Source of the DNA: a virus
IMG/VR virus record: IMGVR_UViG_3300031566_000038
DNA length: 56,620 nucleotides
Strand: one strand, 5' to 3'
Shown here: positions 15,623 to 53,505 of the stretch, piece by piece
Position numbering within the stretch: the first letter of the stretch is position 1
Layout of the letters: every line of letters starts with the position of its first letter
Program-made: the position numbers and the translations under genes
Notes under the pieces: model-generated
What the model was told of the DNA's origin: nothing
Database searches by the model: none
Seen by the model: only the letters and a program-made list of their open reading frames with translations

Positions 15623-15958
15623 TCACTCCGCCCTCCTCTTAAAGCACTGGCTTCCGCTACGATCCATCTGAGGTGAGGACCAGTAAGCCCGGACGCACTT
15701 GAATCTTTCTACCCGCACCAAATCTTCCAAACTAAATTCTCGGTAGGGGTTGTCACGATCTTTAAAGCTTACCCAGATATTAGGACCGTCACTCAGAATA
15801 TCTACTACAGGAATTTCCATAACCAACAGCCCTTCGTGTTCAAGCTGTTTTAGGTATTCGAGAACGGTAGCTTTTAAAGCCTGTAGAACCGTGGGGGATA
15901 CCAGTTCGTACCTGAACCGATCAAAGATTTCATCAAGCTCTTCTTGACAGCCTATCAT
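15623..15958 (-). CDS. hypothetical protein
   Basis: 111-aa ORF overlapping the upstream stop by 4 nt. Confidence 0.45.
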   Translation of the reverse strand: MIGCQEELDEIFDRFRYELVSPTVLQALKATVLEYLKQLEHEGLLVMEIPVVDILSDGPNIWVSFKDRDNPYREFSLEDLVRVERFKCVRAYWSSPQMDRSGSQCFKRRAE

Positions 15959-16746
15959 TTTTTCATCTCTTCAAACTTTTTAAACAAATCGTTGTCTTCT
16001 TGATTTTGTTTGTCCGTTTTGGCCCAATTTATCCCTAACGATTTCCAAGTGTCTTGGTTCTTAAGATCTTTTTCTTCGGGGTATACAGGCTTCACCGCAC
16101 AATATTGGTGACCCTTCTTATCCACCCCGCCCCCGACGATCCTTAGATGATCTCCCGGTTTTGCGCCAGGCGGCACCCAAACCATTTTGATACCCCACAA
16201 AGTCTCAACCGAGATGTAGTCACCTTTCAGCATGATCTCAAGTTTGATATTCTCGTCTACAAAAACATCTAAACCCTTCACCGTGTACCTGGGGTGCTTT
16301 TCAGCGGTCACGGTAACCAAAGCATCCCCGGTTTGATTCAGGCATTTCTTCCCTTTGCGCTTTTCAACATGCCGGAACCCTGAGATAGAGCCCGGTGGAA
16401 GATCAAAAGCAAAGGTGACCGGCTCGAAGTCTTCCGACTTGATAGGTTCTAAGTTCGCACCCAAGGAAATTTGGTTGTAAGACACCACTAACCGAGTGCC
16501 GTAAAAGGCATCATTGAAGGTGGTAATCATCTGGATGTTGAAAGTTAAGTCCCGTACCGGACGGATGCTTTGCTTCCGAGCGTATGACGGGTCGGTGATC
16601 ATCCGATAAGCGTGGGTGACCTCCACAAACTTATCGGAATCACCACCTTGGTCTGGGTGGTGTTCCAAGCACAATTTACGCCAAGCCTTCCGAAGAGTGT
16701 CCGGCGAATCGTCAGGTTTACAACCCAGTACCTCAAAATAATCCAT
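15955..16746 (-). CDS. DnaJ-like co-chaperone (J domain + DnaJ C-terminal domains, no Zn-finger/G-F region)
   Basis: N-terminal J domain with the HPD motif (KLCLEHHPDQGGD). The C-terminal part (GDALVTVTAEKHPRYTVKGLDVFVDENIKL...LWG.IKMVWVPPGAKPGDHLRIVGGG) matches the DnaJ CTD I/II pattern. Confidence 0.7.
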   Translation of the reverse strand: MDYFEVLGCKPDDSPDTLRKAWRKLCLEHHPDQGGDSDKFVEVTHAYRMITDPSYARKQSIRPVRDLTFNIQMITTFNDAFYGTRLVVSYNQISLGANLEPIKSEDFEPVTFAFDLPPGSISGFRHVEKRKGKKCLNQTGDALVTVTAEKHPRYTVKGLDVFVDENIKLEIMLKGDYISVETLWGIKMVWVPPGAKPGDHLRIVGGGVDKKGHQYCAVKPVYPEEKDLKNQDTWKSLGINWAKTDKQNQEDNDLFKKFEEMKK

Positions 16747-17369: not shown

Positions 17370-17801
17370 CTATGATTGTCTTACATCACCAGCAACAACC
17401 CCGTGGTCCACCAAATAAGACTTCCGAGGCTTCGATGGCCGATTATAAATTAATTCCATTTCTTTGCTTATGATTTCATCCATTTCATTGTGCAACCCTA
17501 ACATCCCACAGAGCCGTTTGACGACATGGATTTTTTCGATACGAGACGAAAACAAGTCCATAAATTCGTAAAGGTCTTGGGGATTTTCCCTCGAACCGGA
17601 TTTCAATAGAGCATTGGTGTAGCTTTCCTTGGCTTGGTGCAAACCTTTGTCGTAGTCCAAGATTTCTAAAAAGATTTGGTGGAAAGCTTTCTCGTACTCT
17701 GCCATCGAACAACGTTTTAAGATTTCCTCGTTTACCTCTTTGAACGGGGTGTCGTCTTCGGGCAGAATCTCTTCTTCGTCGTCTACTACATTCTCTTTCA
17801 T
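17370..17801 (-). CDS. hypothetical protein
   Basis: 143-aa ORF with an acidic N-terminus. Confidence 0.5.
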   Translation of the reverse strand: MKENVVDDEEEILPEDDTPFKEVNEEILKRCSMAEYEKAFHQIFLEILDYDKGLHQAKESYTNALLKSGSRENPQDLYEFMDLFSSRIEKIHVVKRLCGMLGLHNEMDEIISKEMELIYNRPSKPRKSYLVDHGVVAGDVRQS

Positions 17802-19920: not shown

Positions 19921-20853
19921 TCAAACGTGAAGGTTATTGTCGGCTTTTTCACACTGAAAGCGGCGAATTTTGCGAACGTCTTTAGTGTCTCCCTGAATTC
20001 CTTGGCGTTGAACATTACCGTGGTGCTCATATATCCCCCCTGATGGCTCGTCGTAATAACAGAACCGCAAAACATCTAGCAAAAATTCAATAGAATTTTG
20101 CAATGATAACCAATCCGCAACAGAACCGAAACCAGAATCCCTAGTGTAATCCATCCTAAGTTCATAAGTGGTTTGCAAAGAACGATACGCTAAGAAGAAT
20201 CTTTCTTGAGCCTCGTGTAAAGATTTTCTATTTTCTACCTGCAATATTTCATTCTGGTGGTGGTCTATAAAGACAGAAGCTAAGTTCTTCAAGCTCAACG
20301 CCACCGACATCCCAGAAAAATAAGTCTTCTCATTCACCAAACCACTCGGCATTAAACTTTGCTTCGAGGTCGGGAAGACTACTACAGCGTCGGTGCCAGT
20401 CAAAAATTCTAACTTCATCTTAACATTCCGCAACCAAGTCTTGGCCAAGGTCTTCACCGATGTCAAACCCGTTAGCTCCTTTAGCTCTGTGAGCGCACCA
20501 TCCGATCCACAAAGCCGGAAGTCCGGGTGGATGGGCCGTAGGTATCTCAGATAACTACGAAGCTCTGAGGCGATAGGGCTAACCTTGATGAAAGCATCCA
20601 CCCCACGCAAACCATCTTCTATTTTTTGTAAGATAAAAATAATCTGCGTGGCTATCCCGTTGTGTAAGATATCATCTTTAGAAATCCCGTAGTCAAAACA
20701 GATATCAGGATGTTCGTTTTCTAAAAAAGCTATTACATCCCCCACCGTGGTAGTGTCGGTGAAGGCGTCGAGATTAGGCACGGGCAAATAAATCCCGTCG
20801 TTGATCGCTTCGGCGTAACCTATGGCCCATATAGCTGTGTAGTAGGGTATCAA
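19921..20853 (-). CDS. hypothetical protein (replication module)
   Basis: 310-aa ORF immediately downstream of the DnaB-like helicase. Confidence 0.55.
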   Translation of the reverse strand: MIPYYTAIWAIGYAEAINDGIYLPVPNLDAFTDTTTVGDVIAFLENEHPDICFDYGISKDDILHNGIATQIIFILQKIEDGLRGVDAFIKVSPIASELRSYLRYLRPIHPDFRLCGSDGALTELKELTGLTSVKTLAKTWLRNVKMKLEFLTGTDAVVVFPTSKQSLMPSGLVNEKTYFSGMSVALSLKNLASVFIDHHQNEILQVENRKSLHEAQERFFLAYRSLQTTYELRMDYTRDSGFGSVADWLSLQNSIEFLLDVLRFCYYDEPSGGIYEHHGNVQRQGIQGDTKDVRKIRRFQCEKADNNLHV

Positions 20854-22224: not shown

Positions 22225-22824
22225 TCAGGTGAAGTTCTGGTGAGAAGTTTTCGCTAGCTGCCACACAATATCAGGATTGTTACCCAGCTTTTCGACTACA
22301 AACTTCATGATGTTGGGGGTCGTAGCTATAATGATTGTAGTAGCGGATTCGGTGCGGCGGATGAAGTCCTTGGCGATCTCCAACTTTTTAAGCTCGGTTT
22401 GTTCGGACAACCCGTGGATCACAGCCAAGTCACATTCTTCTGTAGATTTTAAGAAGTCCCAGTCCGGGTGACCTAAGTCGATCCACTTGACTAAACCCAT
22501 ATCACCTTGGGAAAATTGGAAGTTGAAAAACTCCCGGCTGACCAAAGTAGCTAACTCGTAACCCGCTTGCTCCGTTGGGTAAGAACCTACTACATATAAA
22601 CCTGGGCCGCCGAGAGCATCGATGTTTTCTAAGACATCGCTCAAGGCGGCGGATTGACTTTTAGGGTTGATGATAAAAGTTCCCTTGGCCGCTTGCACCG
22701 AAGTCGTGACGAAATGGAGTTGGGCCGGGGTGATCTTCTTTTTCAGATAGGTAATAGGAGCCCCAGACAAGGCTAGAAGCCGGTCGCTTTTCGGTAAACC
22801 GTAGAACTTACGACCTCTAGCCAT
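22225..22824 (-). CDS. hypothetical protein
   Basis: 199-aa ORF between the vWA gene and the helicase. Confidence 0.5.
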   Translation of the reverse strand: MARGRKFYGLPKSDRLLALSGAPITYLKKKITPAQLHFVTTSVQAAKGTFIINPKSQSAALSDVLENIDALGGPGLYVVGSYPTEQAGYELATLVSREFFNFQFSQGDMGLVKWIDLGHPDWDFLKSTEECDLAVIHGLSEQTELKKLEIAKDFIRRTESATTIIIATTPNIMKFVVEKLGNNPDIVWQLAKTSHQNFT

Positions 22825-22852: not shown

Positions 22853-24991
22853 TCAGAGATCTACAATAACTTCTCTTACACCGAACGTAAAGTTCTTTCC
22901 ATCCACGTCAAGGACGCTGTCTTCTCGGCTGTCGAATTCGTCGAACCACTTAGAAGCCAGTAGAATAGCGAACTTGGTTCTTTGGATGTGCTTACGATTT
23001 TTCAAAAGCTCATGATTCTTATACTGAATCAAGTCATCCAAGATCGCCAGCTTGACTTTGTCCGATCCCTTGGCCTTCTCAGCCAGCACCAAACCTTCGT
23101 TCACCAAAGCTCCGGTTACCGTCAGCTTTTTGCCGCCCACTAAACGATTTCGCACATCCTCGATCTTAGGCAAGCTAGAATGGCCTTTGACCTTCACGGT
23201 GAATTCTTTGGCGTGGTAGTAGTCTTTGGCTTCGCCTTTCACCATCGGTGGGGCGTAACCGTTCTTGCCGATGCCATTCTCTTTCAAAAATTCCGCTTGG
23301 GCTGGGGTCAACATCTCAGGCTTGGCATCGTCGCCTTCGATCTCTTTTTTGACGAACTTCAACGCTTTAAGGTGCGCTTGAGTCACGATCTCTGAGTAGA
23401 CTTGGCGGCACATCGTAGTAGCTGACGTGTACCCGTCGGCGATAGCTCGGTTGATAACCGGGATGCTCTCTAACACTAAGATGTCGGTGCCGTCTTCCGC
23501 CGTTTCAATCATGTTGATGTCGTTGAAAAACTTCCTCGTGGCCTCAGAAAGCTTCACAGGCAGCTTCTTGATGTTTAAGAACCCGTCCTTCACCAAAGCA
23601 TAGTTCCGGTAAACAAACGTCGGGTACTCTTTTTGGAAGCCAACCCCGGCGAAACCATCTTTCAATTCGATCGTACCTTTGATCGTAGCCCTTACCGACA
23701 AATTCAGCTTCTTTTGATTCCAAGTCAAAGCTGAGATAGGGCACGTCGGGTTGTCTTCCGCTTGGAACTTGGCGTAACCCTCTTCCGGTTGTGAAGCTAA
23801 ACCGATCTTCCGATAGTTGAATTCCTTGTGCCGTGGCAAGAAGTAATTCTCTTCGTCACCCATCAACACGTCTAAGGCGTCTAACAAGCAAAAAGCATCC
23901 CTGGGCGGCAGGTAGTTGGTGTTGCGGCCCTCGGCGAACCTAGCCTTGGTGTGGGTGACCGCTCGCTTGATCTTACCTTCAGCTTGGCCAAACTCTTCTA
24001 GGGTGTAAGCGTTGTTGACCCGGTTGATCAAAGCTACGTCGCCCACGGTTCCTAAGATCTCCAAAGCTTCATCCGACTTGGCCTTCTGGGTGAGAAGCAA
24101 AGCCGAAGCGTAAGCCCCTTTCAAAAGGGGATCTTTCGACTCCTTGGTGAGCGTAACTTCAGTCGCTCCCTTGGGCGCAGCTTTGGTCAACACGTAAACC
24201 TGGGAAGCTGACGACTTGTTCGGGCTTAGGATCACGGTGTTGTCAGGAGAAACGAGATACGAATTCACCGCCCCGCCGTTCAAAGAAAAGACCACGTCGC
24301 TTTGTTGGGTGTCGGTGATAAGATCAACCTTCACCTTTTTCGCTACGTCGGTGGTGCCTTGGAAAAATTCAGATAGCTGGGTTTGGTACTCGCCCAAAGA
24401 AGAACAATGCGTCAACGAACCGCCGATCCCGTTAGCCATATCGGTCATCAACGCCTTGTTGTAGTAGTTACCGTAACCGATGAACAAACCCGCTGTGACC
24501 TTGTTCTCGATCGCTTTCAAAGCCTTGTGGATGTTCTCGATCTCTTTGGTGCGGTTAGACACCACAGGGTAGCCGTCAGTGAAAAAGGATAGCGTCACGT
24601 TGTCTGAAAATACCGCTAAGTCATTGATAACTTGGTCGGTGTCAGCCAAAATCTCCGAGAAGCAAGTACAACCCACAGGCGTCAGATTAGAATTCACCGC
24701 CTTCTCTAAAGCTTTGTAGTCGCCTTCTTCATTGATCTTGAATCCCTTGAGAATAAAATTCTTCTGCCCTTCACCGGAAAACCAACCCAAAGTCACCGTG
24801 TCACCAGCCGGTAATTCTTTGAGCTTGGTGATGATGTCTTGGCCTAAACCTCTTAGCTCGTAAGACATCGAATAAGATCTATCAAAAATAAGGATATGGT
24901 TGGTTGAAACCGGTGCCGCCTTAACCTTCGACAAAGCAGGCACGGTCTGTTCTACTAATACTAGATCGTCTCGGATTTTCAAATAACGCAT
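22853..24991 (-). CDS. von Willebrand factor A (vWA) domain protein with intact MIDAS
   Basis: 712 aa. MIDAS elements ILIFDRSYSM (DxSxS), PVGCTCFSEIL (Thr) and TLSFFTDGYP (Asp) lie in the N-terminal ~200 aa. A ~500-aa C-terminal region is unrecognised. Confidence 0.7.
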   Translation of the reverse strand: MRYLKIRDDLVLVEQTVPALSKVKAAPVSTNHILIFDRSYSMSYELRGLGQDIITKLKELPAGDTVTLGWFSGEGQKNFILKGFKINEEGDYKALEKAVNSNLTPVGCTCFSEILADTDQVINDLAVFSDNVTLSFFTDGYPVVSNRTKEIENIHKALKAIENKVTAGLFIGYGNYYNKALMTDMANGIGGSLTHCSSLGEYQTQLSEFFQGTTDVAKKVKVDLITDTQQSDVVFSLNGGAVNSYLVSPDNTVILSPNKSSASQVYVLTKAAPKGATEVTLTKESKDPLLKGAYASALLLTQKAKSDEALEILGTVGDVALINRVNNAYTLEEFGQAEGKIKRAVTHTKARFAEGRNTNYLPPRDAFCLLDALDVLMGDEENYFLPRHKEFNYRKIGLASQPEEGYAKFQAEDNPTCPISALTWNQKKLNLSVRATIKGTIELKDGFAGVGFQKEYPTFVYRNYALVKDGFLNIKKLPVKLSEATRKFFNDINMIETAEDGTDILVLESIPVINRAIADGYTSATTMCRQVYSEIVTQAHLKALKFVKKEIEGDDAKPEMLTPAQAEFLKENGIGKNGYAPPMVKGEAKDYYHAKEFTVKVKGHSSLPKIEDVRNRLVGGKKLTVTGALVNEGLVLAEKAKGSDKVKLAILDDLIQYKNHELLKNRKHIQRTKFAILLASKWFDEFDSREDSVLDVDGKNFTFGVREVIVDL

Positions 24992-25145
24992 GGTGTCTCC
25001 AAAAGTAAATGTGTAACAGAACTCTCTTACATAATTTGTACTACATACGATTATTATCTACTACACATTTCTAACTTAAAAGTTCAAATGCTCTCACTTA
25101 TTTTTAAAGGTAGAGGATACAAAATTCAGGGGTGGGGGAAGAAAA

Positions 25146-27456: not shown

Positions 27457-27487
27457 TTTTGTAAGATATTAAACGAAGGAATTCAAA

Positions 27488-38021: not shown

Positions 38022-39620
38022 ATGGGTAAGACCGTTATTGTAGAGGAGAAAGCTTCAAATTTTTCCAGTGGAACCTCTGCCGATAGTTTCGGTGTGGGTA
38101 ACAACACAGCAAATAAAACCTACTACAAAAGTTTCCAACCGGACTTTGATCCATATATAGCTTACGATCCCGTGCTTCAGACTTGGGTACGTAGAGATTC
38201 CGAGGCTTCGGTCGAGATTCCTTTTGCTGATGCTACCGCTTCCGAGGAAGAAAACTTTGTAGCTACAGAGATCGGTTTCCACCATACAAACCAAAAGCCT
38301 CTTACACCGGCATACGGCTTGGATGCTATTACCAATTTAGTGGACTCTGGTCTTTCGGTGGTGAAAGTATCCACAACCGCAGGGGCCAACAACCACGACA
38401 AGCTTATAGCGGCGATTGCTTCGGCGAGTGCTGGGGATATCGTGTGGGTAGATATTGCTAGCTTCGCAGAAACGTTTGATGGTGGGGAACTCGTTATCAA
38501 CACCCCCATCCACCTAGTTGGTTATAACGGAGATCCAGCCGAAACTATCATAACGATGGGTACGGGGACTGTAGGGGCTTCTCAATCATGCCTACGCTTA
38601 AATGTTGGTGGGACAGGCCCTTTGTGGAAAGATAGGGTTGTTATCAGCGGAATTACCATCGACGGTGCAGGGATTAATACCACCGACGACGGAATCAACG
38701 TTACCGGTTTTCATGCTGTCTTAGTTGATAAATCATATGTTACTTACGAAAATTGTGTAGCCAAGAACTGCTACGGTTTTGGTTTTAATTTAGAGTCAGT
38801 AAGCACCACCACCGACTTTGTTTTTAAGGACTGCGTGGCTTCATATTGTGCTCATGGTTTCAAAGCTGGTGGTGGGACAGTAGAAGACATGAAGATCCTT
38901 AATTGTGTAGCTCACGACAATCGCCACCACCCAAGCTCAAGCGGCACCACAGGTAGTGGTTTTTTTATTCGACCACTATTGATTCGGTTCATTATGAAGG
39001 ATTGTGCTTCTATCTCGAACCAAGAGCACGGCTTCAGCACCGAACAGTTCACTTGTGACAGCCTTGTAGAAAATTGTTTGTTCGAAGGTAATGGCTGGGA
39101 CATAAATGCTTTTAACCCTTCCGGTTGTAAGATATCCCAAGGGGATGGGGAAGAGGTCGATGGCTTAACGTTCAAGCGGTGTGTGTTCCGGCATAACGGT
39201 TTGAGAGCACCTTTCACAGACACGGACGGTAACGATCGGGGTATAGGGGTTCTATTCAAAGTCAAAACTGCTACTTCGAAAGATGTGCTGTTCGAAGAGT
39301 GTACGTTCGACAATAACGGTCATATCGGCATACACTGGCATGGCCGAGACGGTGAAGCCCCCACTACATCCAATTTTGTCGTGAAGGATTGCAATTTCTA
39401 TAATCATGAATTTGCTGGGCTGGGTATGGATAACCTGGGGTCTACGGAAAACCAAATTATTACGGCTACCGGTAACTATTGGGGCTCTACGGACGGGGCT
39501 AGCGGTACAGGCCCAGGCACCGGGGACGCTACCTTAACCTCTACTCCCTACGGAGCTAAGCGGGTAGCGAACGAAGGTGAAACACTCCAAACTTCGATCA
39601 TTGTTTTGACAATCGATTAA
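38022..39620 (+). CDS. right-handed parallel beta-helix protein (pectate-lyase fold; tailspike/depolymerase-like)
   Basis: Repeated PbH1-like segments NCYGFGFNLES, NCVAHDNRHH, CVFRHNG and CTFDNNGHIGIHWHG. Confidence 0.65.
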   Translation: MGKTVIVEEKASNFSSGTSADSFGVGNNTANKTYYKSFQPDFDPYIAYDPVLQTWVRRDSEASVEIPFADATASEEENFVATEIGFHHTNQKPLTPAYGLDAITNLVDSGLSVVKVSTTAGANNHDKLIAAIASASAGDIVWVDIASFAETFDGGELVINTPIHLVGYNGDPAETIITMGTGTVGASQSCLRLNVGGTGPLWKDRVVISGITIDGAGINTTDDGINVTGFHAVLVDKSYVTYENCVAKNCYGFGFNLESVSTTTDFVFKDCVASYCAHGFKAGGGTVEDMKILNCVAHDNRHHPSSSGTTGSGFFIRPLLIRFIMKDCASISNQEHGFSTEQFTCDSLVENCLFEGNGWDINAFNPSGCKISQGDGEEVDGLTFKRCVFRHNGLRAPFTDTDGNDRGIGVLFKVKTATSKDVLFEECTFDNNGHIGIHWHGRDGEAPTTSNFVVKDCNFYNHEFAGLGMDNLGSTENQIITATGNYWGSTDGASGTGPGTGDATLTSTPYGAKRVANEGETLQTSIIVLTID

Positions 39621-40681: not shown

Positions 40682-40799
40682 AAAGGTTACCTCACAAAAC
40701 CCTTTTCGGTTCTATAGCGAAATCACTTTAGCATTTTTTACGGATTTGTCTTACAAAATATATAAGATGTTGTTTTTATTAGGTAGGGGAAGGGGCCGC

Positions 40800-42242: not shown

Positions 42243-44813
42243 ATGAGCATTCGATTTTCCGGCATTTTGACGATCGATACCGTAACGGTAGTAACATCGC
42301 CTTATGTAGTAGAAGCTACATTTTCCGATTCGAGGGGCTATTTCGATGAAACTTTGATTGCTGTCGATAACGTGATTATCGACGCAAACAAAAATCGTTA
42401 TGTAGTCACCGACGTTACTAGCGTTACACCTTTGATCCTAGAATTAGAGTGGGACGACCTCGATGCGCCCGCCCAACCCACCACGGGCGATGGTATTATC
42501 GGTGTGGTTTCTTCCGCTAGGGAGCTTTTAGAAGTTACCCCGGACGCACCAACCGGTGTGGCAACCGCAGCCCGTAACATCGATTTCTTCAAAAACTTAG
42601 ATACCACACCAGATCTAGTTACCGGACCCGCTGGAGTCGCCGGAGCTACCGGCTTTGGCTTCGGCCAACAAGGTCTCACCGGCCCTTCCGGCGCTACAGG
42701 TATCGCAGGTATCATAGGACCACAAGGTGGCACAGGGCTAGCGGGTGTGGCTGGTGTGGCGGGAGCCGTCGGGACCAAAGGCGCTACCGGTCTCGGTGGG
42801 ACCAAAGGCGCTACCGGTACTAAAGGCAGCAACGGCACCCCAGGTGTTGACGGTGTAACAGGCCTTACCGGAGCCGTAGGAGCAATCGGAAGCACTGGTA
42901 TGGTAGGTTCCCAAGGATCTCAAGGTCTCACTGGAATTGACGGGACCAAAGGTGACACCGGAGCGGGCGGTTTGGTTGGCGACACCGGAGCGGGCGGCCA
43001 ACAAGGCCTAACCGGATTATCAGGTTCCACTGGTCTTCAAGGCGTCCAAGGCAACATAGGATCGCAAGGTACGACCGGAACAAGCGGTGCTACAGGATTA
43101 CTAGGTGGCACAGGTTTAATAGGTCAAACAGGGGTTTCGATAACCGGCCCACGAGGACACACCGGACCTTTCGGTCCTACAGGTTTAGCGGGAAGCACCG
43201 GAAGCCAAGGTGATACGGGTTCTCTGGGACTAAAAGGCGATACAGGCGTAGCGGGGACCAACGGCACCACCGGAGCGGGCGGCCAACAAGGGCAAACGGG
43301 AGCGTTAGGTCAAACCGGAGCCGATGGGGGTGTAGGCCAACAAGGTATCACAGGATTCGGCGGTACTACAGGCTTACTAGGAAGCACCGGAGCAACAGGA
43401 ATCCAAGGGTCCGTAGGCCAACAAGGTCTCACAGGCCCCGCAGGTGTAGGCGTAACAGGATCACAAGGTCAAACAGGTGCCGTAGTTCAAGGTGATACTG
43501 GAGTTTCGATAACCGGTCAGACCGGTTTGGCAGGACCGACGGGTAGTCAAGGATCGACAGGCCCGTTAGGTCTTGTTGGAGCCACCGGAGCAAGCGGCAC
43601 CAAAGGCGATACAGGTACGATCGGCGTACAAGGAAATACAGGCCTTAGTTTGCAGGGAAGCACAGGCCTTCAAGGTTCACAAGGTACAACCGGATTCAAT
43701 GGTAACGCTGGCTCTACAGGCGTAGCTGGCTTGCAAGGTGATACGGGTACAATAGGTGGTCAAGGCTCTGCCGGTGCTACAGGCGTTAACGGTCTTCAAG
43801 GGATAACTGGCGGTGTTGGTATTCCCGGTGAAACCGGAACACAAGGTGTAGTAGGAAATGCGGGAGCAACGGGTGTTGTCGGTACTCAGGGTATAACAGG
43901 ATTAAATGGTACTACAGGTATAGTAGGTAGTACAGGTGCTACTGGAATTAGCGGAGCCACCGGAGCCTTTGGAGTAATCGGAGCTACCGGAAGTCAGGGC
44001 ACCACGGGCGTAGCTGGAATCCAAGGAGCCCAAGGTTCCACCGGAGCCCAAGGCCAACAAGGAAATACCGGCCCAATAGGCACCACAGGTTCTATGGGTT
44101 CGCAAGGACAGCAAGGTCTGACCGGTGGACTCGGGCTCCAAGGTTTGACGGGATTATTAGGCGGCACTGGCGTACAAGGTGGCGTAGGAGTTGATGGTAC
44201 CACCGGGGTGAAAGGGCCTACAGGAGTACAGGGAGCGACGGGTCAACGAGGCTTCACAGGCATAGGCATTATAGGACCGCCAGGACCGATAGGCTCCACC
44301 GGATTCACTGGAACTACAGGTGTTCCCGGCGAAACTGGTGCTGGTTTACAAGGCCAAACCGGAGCGGGGGCCACAGGTCCAGAGGGTCACACAGGTGTCC
44401 AAGGAATTGCGGGAGCCACCGGCCCACAAGGTATAGCCAGAACCGCTTACAACTGGACGATCTCCAATAGTTCAGGTTTAATCGTTGGTACTTATATCGT
44501 TTACTTTGCGATGGAAGCGGTGACGATCGACGAGGTCGTGGTGACGATGATTAATTCAGGTACAGGCGGCACCGGCGCAACCCACTTTGAATTCTATAAA
44601 TTGGGAGCTTCCATTTTACCGACTTCACCACCGGTCGGTACCGGCGACTTCACGGTCATCATCCCGGCAGCGGGCGTGACGGTTATGAACGGCACCAAAG
44701 TAACCACCTTAGCTTTAGGTTTGGCCCTAAACGAATCTTTGGTAGTAGGGATCTCAGCGGCCCCGGACACCCCAGGTAATAACGCTTTGATTTCGATTCG
44801 AGCTTTGTTGTAG
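42243..44813 (+). CDS. collagen-like triple-helix repeat protein (fibre-like)
   Basis: About 600 aa of Gly-X-Y repeats rich in T/Q/A/V, from roughly residue 125 to 730, flanked by non-collagenous N- and C-terminal domains. Confidence 0.75.
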   Translation: MSIRFSGILTIDTVTVVTSPYVVEATFSDSRGYFDETLIAVDNVIIDANKNRYVVTDVTSVTPLILELEWDDLDAPAQPTTGDGIIGVVSSARELLEVTPDAPTGVATAARNIDFFKNLDTTPDLVTGPAGVAGATGFGFGQQGLTGPSGATGIAGIIGPQGGTGLAGVAGVAGAVGTKGATGLGGTKGATGTKGSNGTPGVDGVTGLTGAVGAIGSTGMVGSQGSQGLTGIDGTKGDTGAGGLVGDTGAGGQQGLTGLSGSTGLQGVQGNIGSQGTTGTSGATGLLGGTGLIGQTGVSITGPRGHTGPFGPTGLAGSTGSQGDTGSLGLKGDTGVAGTNGTTGAGGQQGQTGALGQTGADGGVGQQGITGFGGTTGLLGSTGATGIQGSVGQQGLTGPAGVGVTGSQGQTGAVVQGDTGVSITGQTGLAGPTGSQGSTGPLGLVGATGASGTKGDTGTIGVQGNTGLSLQGSTGLQGSQGTTGFNGNAGSTGVAGLQGDTGTIGGQGSAGATGVNGLQGITGGVGIPGETGTQGVVGNAGATGVVGTQGITGLNGTTGIVGSTGATGISGATGAFGVIGATGSQGTTGVAGIQGAQGSTGAQGQQGNTGPIGTTGSMGSQGQQGLTGGLGLQGLTGLLGGTGVQGGVGVDGTTGVKGPTGVQGATGQRGFTGIGIIGPPGPIGSTGFTGTTGVPGETGAGLQGQTGAGATGPEGHTGVQGIAGATGPQGIARTAYNWTISNSSGLIVGTYIVYFAMEAVTIDEVVVTMINSGTGGTGATHFEFYKLGASILPTSPPVGTGDFTVIIPAAGVTVMNGTKVTTLALGLALNESLVVGISAAPDTPGNNALISIRALL

Positions 44814-46016: not shown

Positions 46017-46270
46017 AATTAAAAAGAAATTCACCTTCGAACCGTTGCGGCTCAACGCATTAATGAGATGTAGTAGAACACGTTATAGAAACTCCTTGCG
46101 GTGTTAAAATCCGATGTTAGATTATAACTATTCCGAACGTTCAGGCGGAGGGTACGGGGAAGGGCTACAGTCCTTTTTTTTAGTGGGGAAGTCCCCCTTT
46201 TTCCTTCAAGGTCTATTCGGAACTTACGCTCCCGGTGTGGGAGTTAACAATTGAAAAGAGGGAGACTCTT

Positions 46271-47383
46271 ATGATTCTCAAGCGCAAACCTTATCGTGTG
46301 TCGATCGTCCTTGGTCGATTTCAAGTTTTCCACAAAGCCCACAAAAGATTATTAGACGAAGCGTTCACGTTGGCGGATATCGTTTTGGTTGTTTTAGGTT
46401 CGCACCAAGCGGCTTTGAACATCAAAAACCCGTTCACCACCGACGAAAGAGAAGAGATGATCCGCAAGGTCTACCCCGACCGAGATATCCATTTCGTGGT
46501 GGTGCCGGATCATATGTACGACGACGACCGCTGGCTCCTAGAAGTTCAAGCCAAGGTCCGGCAAAAGATTACGGCGCTTGGGATCGAAACTGAAATTGTC
46601 ATCCGTCCTTGGGAAGATCGAGCGGTAGCCCCTCCCAAAGTGAATAAAGATATTTGTATCTGCGGCTACTACAAAGATTCGAGTTCTTATTACCTCGACT
46701 ACTACAAAAACATATGGGGTTTCGAAACCCACGTAGCTTCTATCAACATTTCTAGCACCGACATCCGAACCGCTTTGTTTACCGATGGGCGAGTCCAGCC
46801 TGAGCAAAGTAATTTGCATTGGGCGCAACAAGTTCCCGACCCGGTCGTGGATTGGGTCTCTGCTAATTTTTTAGGCACTCCAAAGTTTGACTACCTCAAA
46901 GAAGAGTACGATTTCCTTGTTGATTATAAGGAGAAGTGGAACCCTACGGGCGATCGGCAATGGATCACCGGGGACGCTATAGTGGTTCAAAATGGTTTGG
47001 TCTTGATGGTGATTCGAAAAAATATGCCTGGCAAGGGGTTGTGGGCTTTACCTGGCGGTTTCATCAAGAAAACCGAAACGATCGACAACGGGGTGCTTAG
47101 GGAACTCAAAGAAGAGACCGTGATCGGGATGCACAAACACGAGCTTCGCAAACACTTCGTGGGTAGTGCAGTGTTCGACCACCCTGACAGAGACCTCCGG
47201 GGTAGGATCGTAACTCACGGGCACTTCTTCAAGCTGGGGAAGGACATCCCGCTACCGCACGTCAAAGGTAGCGACGATGCTTTGAAAGCTTTTTGGGTGC
47301 CGATAAACGAAGTCATCCAGAACGCCCACAACGTCTACGGCGATCATATCCATATCCTAAATTATTTGTCTCGTTTCAACTAA
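46271..47383 (+). CDS. nadM: bifunctional NMN adenylyltransferase / Nudix hydrolase (NadM/NatV-like)
   Basis: N-terminal LGRFQVFHKAH (GRFQPFH nucleotidyltransferase motif). Nudix box GGFIKKTETIDNGVLRELKEETV. GAGGGAGA RBS. Confidence 0.75.
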   Translation: MILKRKPYRVSIVLGRFQVFHKAHKRLLDEAFTLADIVLVVLGSHQAALNIKNPFTTDEREEMIRKVYPDRDIHFVVVPDHMYDDDRWLLEVQAKVRQKITALGIETEIVIRPWEDRAVAPPKVNKDICICGYYKDSSSYYLDYYKNIWGFETHVASINISSTDIRTALFTDGRVQPEQSNLHWAQQVPDPVVDWVSANFLGTPKFDYLKEEYDFLVDYKEKWNPTGDRQWITGDAIVVQNGLVLMVIRKNMPGKGLWALPGGFIKKTETIDNGVLRELKEETVIGMHKHELRKHFVGSAVFDHPDRDLRGRIVTHGHFFKLGKDIPLPHVKGSDDALKAFWVPINEVIQNAHNVYGDHIHILNYLSRFN

Positions 47384-47393
47384 GAGGTCTGTT

Positions 47394-48770
47394 ATGTCTG
47401 ATTTTTACAGCTTTTTAAGCAATCTTATTTTTCTCACTGACTCTTACAAGGTCTCCCACTGGCGTCAATACCCGAAGTCTATCACCAAGATGTTATCTTA
47501 TTTTTCCAGCCGGGGTGGGTTGTACCCTGAAACGGTAGCGAATGTTTTGCTCCACTACCAAATGAAGCGGTTGGAAGGGGTGCAAATCACCCAAGAAAAG
47601 ATCGAAGAAGCGGCGGAACTTTTTAAATTTCACTTCGGTGATGAAAGCATTTTCAACCGTGCGGGTTGGGAATATATCCTAAAGGAGCACGGTGGTCGGC
47701 TACCGTTGAAGATCAAAGCGGTCGCCGAAGGCACGGTAGTACCCCACGGCAATGTTTTGATTGTGGCTGAAAGCACCGATCCTAAATGTCCTTGGGTCAC
47801 CAACTACTTCGAAACCTTCATGGTGCAAAATTGGTACCCTTCCACGGTGGCTACTTTTTCGTACACGGCTAAGAATCTTATCAACCGCTACCTCGAAGAA
47901 ACCGGTGACCCTGCCGGTTTGCCTTACAAATTGCACGACTTCGGGGTCAGGGGCACTAGCAGCATGGAATCGGCAGCGATCGGTGGGGCGGCTCACCTCC
48001 TAAATTTCTCTGGCACCGACAACCTACCCGCTATGGCTTTGCTCAAAAAGTTCTACGGGGGGTACGTGGGGAACTCTATTCCGGCAGCGGAGCACTCCAC
48101 AGCGTGCTCTTGGATCAAAGAAAAAGATTTCTTCCGTCACATGATCGAAGAATTCCCAGGGATGGTAGCGGTGGTGTCCGATACCTATGACATCTACGAA
48201 GCTTGCCGGGTTTGGTCCACCGAGCTTAAAGACCAAGTTCTGGCCCGAAAAGACGGCTGTGTGGTTATCCGGCCTGACTCGGGTGACCCGCTAGAAGTCT
48301 TGGAAAAGATCTTCGAGATCCTAGGGGAGAACTTCAAGAACGAGATCGTGGTAAACAAAAAAGGTTACAGGGTATTACCACCCCAGGTGCGAGTGATCCA
48401 AGGAGATGGAGTAGACATAGAAGCTATCGGCGATATCTTAGAGATGCTGAAGTTGAAAGGTTGGTCGGCAGACAATATAGCTTTCGGCTGTGGTGGTGCT
48501 CTTTTACAAAAATTGAATAGGGACACTAATAAGTTTGCTTTCAAAGCGTCCGCCGTTTTGGACAACGGGGTATGGCGGGAAATAAGGAAGAACCCGGTCA
48601 CCGACCCCGGTAAAGCAAGCAAAGCGGGCTTATTAGATCTTGTCAAAATCGACGGAACCTTTACTACCACTTCACCTTCGGGGAATTCATTGCTTGCGGT
48701 AGTTTTCGAAAATGGTATGGTGCCGCCGAGCGATAGTCTGGAAACTATTCGCACCCGCTTAGTGGTCTAA
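47394..48770 (+). CDS. nadV: nicotinamide phosphoribosyltransferase (NAMPT/NadV)
   Basis: 458 aa. HDFGVRGTSSMESAAIGGAAHLLNFSGTDN is typical of NAMPT. Lies 10 nt after nadM. Confidence 0.8.
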   Translation: MSDFYSFLSNLIFLTDSYKVSHWRQYPKSITKMLSYFSSRGGLYPETVANVLLHYQMKRLEGVQITQEKIEEAAELFKFHFGDESIFNRAGWEYILKEHGGRLPLKIKAVAEGTVVPHGNVLIVAESTDPKCPWVTNYFETFMVQNWYPSTVATFSYTAKNLINRYLEETGDPAGLPYKLHDFGVRGTSSMESAAIGGAAHLLNFSGTDNLPAMALLKKFYGGYVGNSIPAAEHSTACSWIKEKDFFRHMIEEFPGMVAVVSDTYDIYEACRVWSTELKDQVLARKDGCVVIRPDSGDPLEVLEKIFEILGENFKNEIVVNKKGYRVLPPQVRVIQGDGVDIEAIGDILEMLKLKGWSADNIAFGCGGALLQKLNRDTNKFAFKASAVLDNGVWREIRKNPVTDPGKASKAGLLDLVKIDGTFTTTSPSGNSLLAVVFENGMVPPSDSLETIRTRLVV

Positions 48771-53421: not shown

Positions 53422-53505
53422 AATATATCTCCCTTATTGCTGAGATCTATCTTACACATTTTGGGTGAAAAGAACCACCGTGTATAAAACACGATGGTTT
53501 TTTGA

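Follow-up and report, generated by a model that had tools for sequence, protein, structure and literature searches.

The von Willebrand A (vWA) domain binds its ligands through a MIDAS (metal ion-dependent adhesion site), in which the ligand contributes an acidic or phosphorylated side chain to complete the coordination of a divalent cation. Scaffolds of the ArnB and Sec23/24 type, which are built around such a domain, are typical of intracellular protein-protein adaptors. The architecture described for both ArnB and the Sec23/24 core has a hairpin first, then the vWA domain, next a beta-sandwich and last a helical bundle (PMC12852372). Other vWA proteins are paired with MoxR ATPases, and these MoxR-vWA pairs have been proposed to be virion-assembly chaperones in jumbo phages and in the archaeal virus ATV (PMC7824862). 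Here we analyze a vWA protein encoded at positions 22853-24991 (minus strand) of the IMG/VR virus record IMGVR_UViG_3300031566_000038, a stretch of 56,620 nucleotides that is referred to below as the window. It adds one more sequence to phrog_2426 ('unknown function'; E=4.5e-128, 429.7 bits), an already known, widespread and uncharacterized family of large-phage proteins, and its N-terminal half has the arrangement of ArnB and of the Sec23/24 core. As its most likely role we tentatively propose that of a soluble protein adaptor that is self-contained, depends on its MIDAS and acts on a widely conserved component of the cell.

Domain architecture and MIDAS of the vWA protein

The gene is an unbroken open reading frame (ORF) of 712 codons with an ATG start and a TGA stop (22853..24991), and a GGAG ribosome-binding site read from the sequence (24997..25000, minus strand) stands 9 nt upstream of the start codon. 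A preliminary description of this DNA had proposed a 712-aa protein with a complete MIDAS of the form DRSYS...T...D, and had named a lack of conservation of these residues in homologues as one finding that would refute it. The reading frame proved to be real, with 308 metagenomic homologues at 43-67% identity and matches in 502 phage records in addition to the phrog_2426 match, and the motif is present exactly as described. The first MIDAS loop, D37-R-S39-Y-S41 (DxSxS), is encoded at 24869..24883, T109 in GCTCFSE at 24665..24667, and D139 in FFTDGYP at 24575..24577, all on the minus strand. All five residues (D37, S39, S41, T109 and D139) are invariant in an alignment of 12 sequences that reaches down to 24-29% identity and takes in AR9 gp068, a Klebsiella phage of the Ackermannviridae type, Serratia phage phiMAM1, a Rhizobium phage and an Alishewanella phage. 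Among 79 closer homologues T109 and D139 are likewise invariant, and D37, S39 and S41 are each conserved at 90% or more; T138-D139-G140 is invariant. Both features that define the superfamily, a Rossmann-like alpha/beta vWA fold and the DxSxS, T and D elements on three loops, were found. The vWA/MIDAS assignment is solid, and metal binding by the MIDAS is predicted from the sequence.

An AlphaFold2 model computed from the 79-sequence alignment (mean predicted local distance difference test score, pLDDT, 89.7; predicted template modelling score, pTM, 0.77) gave the domain order. It runs from a beta-hairpin (residues 1-17; 24941..24991) through the vWA domain (residues ~30-215; 24347..24904), a beta-sandwich (residues 216-284; 24140..24346, with modelled strands at 220-279) and a four-helix bundle (residues 285-347; 23951..24139) to a family-specific alpha/beta module (residues 348-712; 22856..23950), all encoded on the minus strand. 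The vWA domain and the beta-sandwich co-align structurally with 4fx5 (298 aa), ArnB (285 aa) and Sec23A (275 aa). The hallmark of the ArnB/Sec23-24-type core, a vWA domain joined to a beta-sandwich with a helical bundle behind it, is present; the four-helix bundle is the counterpart of the C-terminal helical bundle of ArnB and of the helical domain of Sec23/24. By analogy with these proteins, the hairpin would be expected to join the strands C-terminal to the vWA domain in forming the beta-sandwich. The approximately 500 aa beyond the vWA domain had earlier been regarded as unrecognizable; this no longer holds for residues 216-347, which form the beta-sandwich and the four-helix bundle, but stands for residues ~348-712.

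The resemblance to the described systems has clear limits. The closest archaeal counterparts are ArnB and ArnE (vWA2) of Sulfolobus acidocaldarius (PDB 8s05, 5a8j), with a sequence identity of just 16%. ArnB is ~380 aa long and lacks the 365-residue C-terminal module; its partners in archaellum regulation are the ZnF-FHA protein ArnA and the kinase ArnC, whereas no such partners stand beside the window gene. Sec23/24 carries a zinc finger and a gelsolin-like domain and works as a heterodimer with Sar1 on membranes, whereas the window protein lacks a zinc finger and any detectable gelsolin-like domain, keeps its MIDAS intact and ends in an unrelated C-terminal module. The match 4fx5, a structural-genomics target from Catenulispora acidiphila, is a vWA protein of 426 aa with 11-12% identity that does not cover the module. 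Ku70/Ku80 are similar in total length and also begin with a vWA-type domain; a Ku identity was rejected, as the central beta-barrel ring with its DNA-end-binding C-terminal arm was not found. The MoxR-associated vWA proteins (NorD, BchD/CobT, ViaA and the jumbo-phage pairs) are encoded next to an AAA+ ATPase. In agreement with the preliminary description, no MoxR/AAA+ gene was found among the window ORFs scanned, and none is adjacent to the homologues in 10 loci with Pfam annotation. AR9, one of the phages that encode a family member, has a separate pair of AAA ATPase and vWA genes, g028/g029 (PMC5312081).

The protein had no match in Pfam (at E<=1), NCBIfam or PADLOC, while 7 of the 12 aligned family members matched Pfam VWA_2 (best E 1.1e-6); PDB searches with the single sequence, the full-length profile and the C-terminal profile gave nothing significant. 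The module at residues 348-712 matched no solved structure by fold or sequence profile, and its Pfam signal was not consistent. The maximum hydropathy over 19 residues is 0.96, with no hydrophobic segment, and across the family the net charges of the domains are mostly acidic or neutral, none being consistently basic. These two properties argue that the protein is soluble and cytoplasmic and does not bind nucleic acids in a generic way.

The C-terminal module, ~365 residues long and confidently modelled (pLDDT 90.6), carries the conserved motifs YLPxxDAFC, LNLS, RNYxxVKDGxLN, PVINR, DxYxAKEF, SSLPK, QxTKF and KWFDEF. The polar residues D318, R351, N430, S432, D469, N514, R515, K542, D590 and Y592 are invariant in the 12-sequence alignment. 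One explanation of the module is that it is an enzyme of a new fold which the vWA/MIDAS part merely targets or regulates. The ten or so polar residues held invariant across positions 318-592 at 24-29% identity would suit this explanation, as would a confidently folded domain with no structural match and an architecture strictly fixed in at least 1,100 clusters. On the other hand, the module has no invariant His, Cys or Glu and no nucleotide-binding motif, it matches no enzyme family in Pfam, NCBIfam or the PDB, and many of its invariant positions are aromatic, Gly or Pro, as is typical of structural cores; we consider the enzyme improbable. The invariant motifs point to a second conserved functional surface. 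In a more far-reaching but doubtful form of the adaptor reading, the module would be a new fold with a new activity and would form, together with the MIDAS scaffold, a device shared by many phage groups that latches onto a universally conserved bacterial component. Such a device, if real, would explain why one rigid architecture recurs in phages with hosts as different as Bacillus, enterobacteria, Rhizobium and soil bacteria and, in some Acidobacteria, as a gene on its own.

Distribution and genomic context of the family

By tblastn, 502-504 phage records (~1% of sequenced phage genomes) were matched over nearly the full length at 24-29% identity, with a query coverage of 92-100% in AR9, phiMAM1 and the Rhizobium and Klebsiella phages. 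A profile of the C-terminal module run against 1.84 billion representative proteins gave 1321 matches, 1121 of them at E<=1e-10, and the family spans at least 1,100 clusters at 50% identity. Among the best 150 matches listed, those that are full-length proteins measure ~660-770 aa, with the module starting at residue ~240-310, and the shorter entries look like fragments; among these 150 of the 1321 matches the module was not seen with any other N-terminus. Judged from these sequences, the family architecture is fixed, and it spans phages of Firmicutes, Proteobacteria and soil bacteria. A further 76 loci were found in IMG/VR, many on contigs of 200-512 kb, and a scan of 185,579 species genomes with peptide patterns returned five loci, a lower bound given the narrowness of the patterns.

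The named members include AR9 gp068, PBS1 gp259, RB43 ORF119c and RB16p109 (annotated 'N-terminal similar to VWFA'), together with proteins of Slopekvirus- and Karamvirus-type phages of Klebsiella, Cronobacter and Enterobacter, of Pseudomonas phage pf16, of Shewanella phage Thanatos-1 and of the Kleczkowskaviridae of Rhizobium. RB43 ORF119c was already noticed in 2006 (PMC1524935), and for the Vi01-like Ackermannviridae a 'vWA domain protein' gene is among the 114 entries of a published core-gene table (PMC10892097). What we found on the phrog_2426 family in the literature were annotations alone ('vWA', 'magnesium chelatase' and, in one table, the category 'Virulence'). The homology with the AR9, RB43, RB16 and Vi01-like members is collinear over the full length (24-29% identity, E 1e-47 to 1e-65), and domain order, invariant MIDAS and C-terminal motifs are common to the window protein and the named members. 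The window protein differs from these members in belonging to a clade of uncultured soil and metagenome sequences (43-67% identity) and in the position of its gene at the head of a replication block, which is particular to the lineage of the window. The finding in this window is in itself ordinary; the family as a whole is somewhat more interesting, being large, present in tractable phages (RB16/RB43, Kuttervirus and AR9/PBS1) and composed of proteins about half of which, by length, has no structural relative among solved structures. For these proteins the present analysis supplies a domain map and five named MIDAS residues.

For a survey of neighbours, BLAST was used to cluster the ORFs called in 97 loci. 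Of these loci 92 have the vWA cluster, and every neighbour cluster occurs in at most 17; no universal neighbour emerged across them, and sharing of neighbours is confined to single lineages. In one jumbo T4-like lineage (16-17 loci) the neighbours are a gp23-type capsid gene, an S77 prohead protease gene, a glycosyltransferase gene and PhoH. The RB16 gene lies among small hypothetical genes in the same orientation as nrdC.11 and a DNA methyltransferase gene and opposite to the baseplate genes; in Ackermannviridae the gene lies between the clamp-loader/regA region and the lysis region; in phiMAM1 and the Rhizobium phages it is loosely near replication and recombination genes; and in AR9 it stands alone, flanked by oppositely oriented genes. 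The ORF immediately downstream in the window, encoding 199 aa (p199; 22225..22824, minus strand) and starting 28 nt past the vWA stop codon, is a lineage-specific syntenic neighbour and a candidate partner. It adjoins the vWA gene at 52% identity in L012 and L013, two related contigs, and had no match in the phage collection or in Pfam, PHROG, NCBIfam or PADLOC. It was rejected as a general partner, as it is present only in the lineage of the window.

Homologues at 46-47% identity also occur as lone genes in non-phage contexts of bacterial chromosomes (L005/L018, L007/L015 and L017). L005/L018 is the 947-kb Blastocatellia contig JBDIBI010000001.1, in which the vWA gene lies by uppS-cdsA, a gene for an FHA protein and two Ser/Thr kinase genes. 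A vWA-MCP-Usp arrangement recurs in two genomes, on an Acidobacteria contig and on a contig of a metagenome-assembled genome. Besides the vWA protein itself, the chromosomal and the viral loci have no protein cluster in common. The lone homologues in bacterial chromosomal contexts suggest an exchange between phages and hosts of the Acidobacteria type, and a function independent of other phage genes.

Because the gene travels alone, keeps a fixed architecture across hosts and also exists as a lone cellular gene, we tentatively favour the adaptor with a widely conserved component of the cell as its target. The gene product would be a soluble cytoplasmic protein forming a single-gene unit. Its N-terminal half (hairpin, vWA domain, beta-sandwich and four-helix bundle) would serve as an intracellular vWA scaffold as in ArnB and the Sec23/24 core, with D37, S39, S41, T109 and D139 holding a divalent cation whose coordination the partner would complete through an acidic or phosphorylated side chain. 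The C-terminal module of ~365 residues would supply a second conserved surface for binding or for an effector function. The partner would most likely be a cellular component of this widely conserved kind, which would make the protein a host-directed accessory factor and not a component of replication or of a vault.

Expression in AR9 and alternative roles

Transcription of the AR9 homologue bears on several alternatives. In fragments per kilobase of transcript per million mapped reads (FPKM), g068 rises from 0.96 at 5 min to 105.6 at 20 min and 431.5 at 40 min, and it is served by a primary transcription start site of its own, 30 nt upstream, while the replication genes of AR9 are already at 14-90 FPKM at 5 min (PMC5312081). 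In the AR9 record gp068 does not bear a virion-protein label, and its neighbours do.

The preliminary description had placed the gene in a replication cluster, downstream of a DnaB-like helicase gene. The orientation was mistaken: on the minus strand the vWA gene is the 5'-most member of a leftward block and hence upstream of the helicase gene. The block runs from the vWA gene through p199, the DnaB-like helicase (Pfam DnaB_C, 3.2e-24), a 310-aa ORF (p310) and a 390-aa ORF resembling clamp-like processivity factors (phrog_947) and, after further genes, to DnaJ. L012 and L013 keep the order of a divergent 305-aa ORF, vWA, p199, DnaB, clamp-like protein and DnaJ; elsewhere the vWA gene alone is common. 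As it heads this block and, in phiMAM1 and the Rhizobium phages, has genes of replication and recombination in its wider surroundings, the gene could be taken to encode a replication or repair accessory protein, Ku-like or like p44 of TFIIH, that partners the adjacent helicase and the clamp-like protein. The synteny with DnaB and the clamp-like protein is, however, limited to this one lineage, and the most widely shared neighbours, in at most 17 of 97 loci and all in the jumbo T4-like lineage, are capsid genes; no domain is consistently basic; and the AR9 homologue is still silent at 5 min, by which time expression of DnaB, polymerase and gyrase has begun. A replication role is accordingly very unlikely.

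The eukaryotic vault accessory proteins VPARP and TEP1 carry vWA-type modules, and the window encodes a protein of 884 aa resembling the major vault protein (MVP) at 2489-5143 (plus strand), ~18 kb from the vWA gene. The MVP-like protein matches Pfam MVP_shoulder (3e-27), Vault_3 (3.7e-9) and Band_7 (4.2e-5); among 50,697 phage records it was found only in LR756500, LR756501 and LR756503, which are uncultured huge phages (~37% identity over 97-99%), and a pattern scan of IMG/VR returned nothing. An accessory subunit of a vault-like particle, by analogy with VPARP/TEP1, is a link that had been flagged from the outset as possibly coincidental, and it did not survive comparison of the distributions: three uncultured huge-phage records contain the MVP-like protein against 502 for the vWA family, and none of the three is among the ~110 phage records of the vWA family listed. 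The two genes are also on opposite strands, in separate transcription blocks. The fold search returned no Ku core, TROVE, PARP or gelsolin match in the C-terminal region, where a Ku, TROVE or PARP domain had been suspected. A VPARP/TEP1-Ro60-like identity was therefore rejected for want of a PARP or TROVE fold and of co-occurrence with MVP. The SPFH/Band-7 protein of a related contig is distributed differently again, mostly in Staphylococcus and Bacillus phages, and the phage distributions, when compared, led to the rejection of a co-occurrence of the vWA family with MVP or SPFH proteins. Since the distributions differ, the function of the vWA family does not depend on the MVP-like protein, and nothing points to a lineage-specific co-option with it. 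We regard a vault-like role as scarcely credible. The replication and vault associations in the window thus appear to be local accidents of gene order, and attention shifts to the partner in model phages.

The main rival to the adaptor acting on a cellular component is a cofactor of late morphogenesis or proteostasis. The vWA/MIDAS part would then be a substrate adaptor, not itself a virion component, that hands virion or other phage proteins to DnaK/DnaJ, GroEL, ClpP or a MoxR-type ATPase encoded elsewhere. The late-type profile of AR9 g068 with its own primary start site, and the absence of a virion label beside labelled neighbours, are consistent with this. So is the adjacency to the gp23-like capsid and S77 prohead-protease genes in the 16-17 loci of the jumbo T4-like lineage, and the proposed virion-assembly role of MoxR-vWA pairs offers a precedent (PMC7824862).

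Chaperone and protease genes were observed near the vWA gene in two lineages. A full-length DnaJ co-chaperone with J domain and DnaJ_C is encoded at 15955-16746 (minus strand) in the same leftward block of the window and is kept in L012 and L013. In the metagenomic phage lineage of L019, only 9 nt separate the end of a ClpP gene from the vWA start, and a gene for a GroEL-like Cpn60 follows 1-4 kb downstream; the ClpP/Cpn60 sites of this lineage are L019 9372-9992 and 13269-14963 and L003 16065-17762. The proximity of such genes in the two lineages would also fit the morphogenesis cofactor, but each set of chaperone neighbours is confined to a single lineage. An AAA+ partner is adjacent in none of the loci examined, the lone bacterial chromosomal copies lie in non-phage contexts, and in RB16 the gene keeps company with nrdC.11, a DNA methyltransferase gene and small hypotheticals, opposite to the baseplate genes. 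On balance we judge the morphogenesis cofactor unlikely.

Several points weigh against the adaptor with a cellular partner. In its expression profile AR9 g068 is closer to the portal gene and to other genes annotated for virion or morphogenesis functions than to typical early host-takeover genes (PMC5312081), and in the jumbo T4-like lineage the gene adjoins the gp23 capsid and gp21 protease genes. Strong full-length conservation and the core status in Ackermannviridae are unusual for fast-evolving host-interaction genes, and the invariant polar residues of the C-terminal module could form a catalytic site rather than a binding surface. No partner emerged from the analysis, no experimental functional study of the family was found in the literature, and the MIDAS geometry and domain packing are those given by alignments, not by model coordinates.

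Other features of the window

The vWA gene is separated from the ORFs of 75 aa and 305 aa that run rightward by a divergent intergenic region of 154 bp (24992..25145), which is presumed to be a promoter region. It holds a single copy of TGTAGTAG and, 40 nt upstream of the vWA start codon, the word TGTAAGAGA. A scan with the sigma-70 consensus showed no promoter-like site on the minus strand of 24992..25145 and nothing above chance.

The octamer TGTAGTAG (complement CTACTACA) is the commonest of the window, with 43 copies (20 on the plus and 23 on the minus strand), or ~0.76 per kb, against ~1.7 copies expected from the length. It is found in coding and intergenic sequence alike, for example at 25058-25065, 24460-24467, 22336-22343 and 20838-20845. 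The second-ranked octamer is the low-complexity TTCTTCTT (23 copies). The enrichment of TGTAGTAG is absent in L012 and L013 (0-0.17 per kb); the octamer could be a Chi-like, modification-target or uptake-type signal. A second motif, TGTAAGA[GTC]A, is enriched about five-fold (36 copies of TGTAAGA) and precedes several start codons, that of the vWA gene among them, by 24-75 nt, with sites at 25023-25031 (minus), 17377-17385 (minus), 27460-27468 (plus), 53448-53456 (minus) and 40747-40755 (minus). The related word GTAAGAGA is also among the top octamers of L012. TGTAAGA[GTC]A may be a lineage-specific promoter element, though many of its copies lie inside genes; for the two motifs together most copies fall within genes, which limits what can be said of a promoter class.

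NAD-salvage modules are carried by some phages, and the window encodes such a pair on the plus strand: a fusion of a cytidyltransferase-type nicotinamide mononucleotide adenylyltransferase with a Nudix domain (46235-47383; phrog_395 and phrog_1198) and a nicotinamide phosphoribosyltransferase (47394-48770; phrog_448, E=7e-145). In Klebsiella phage XDRKpn-1 and an Alishewanella phage, too, genes of the NAMPT/NaPRT type are found at a distance of a few kb from the vWA homologue. A right-handed beta-helix protein of 532 aa is encoded at 38022-39620, and an 856-aa collagen-repeat protein resembling tail fibres, with many PHROG tail-fibre matches, at 42243-44813 (plus strand).

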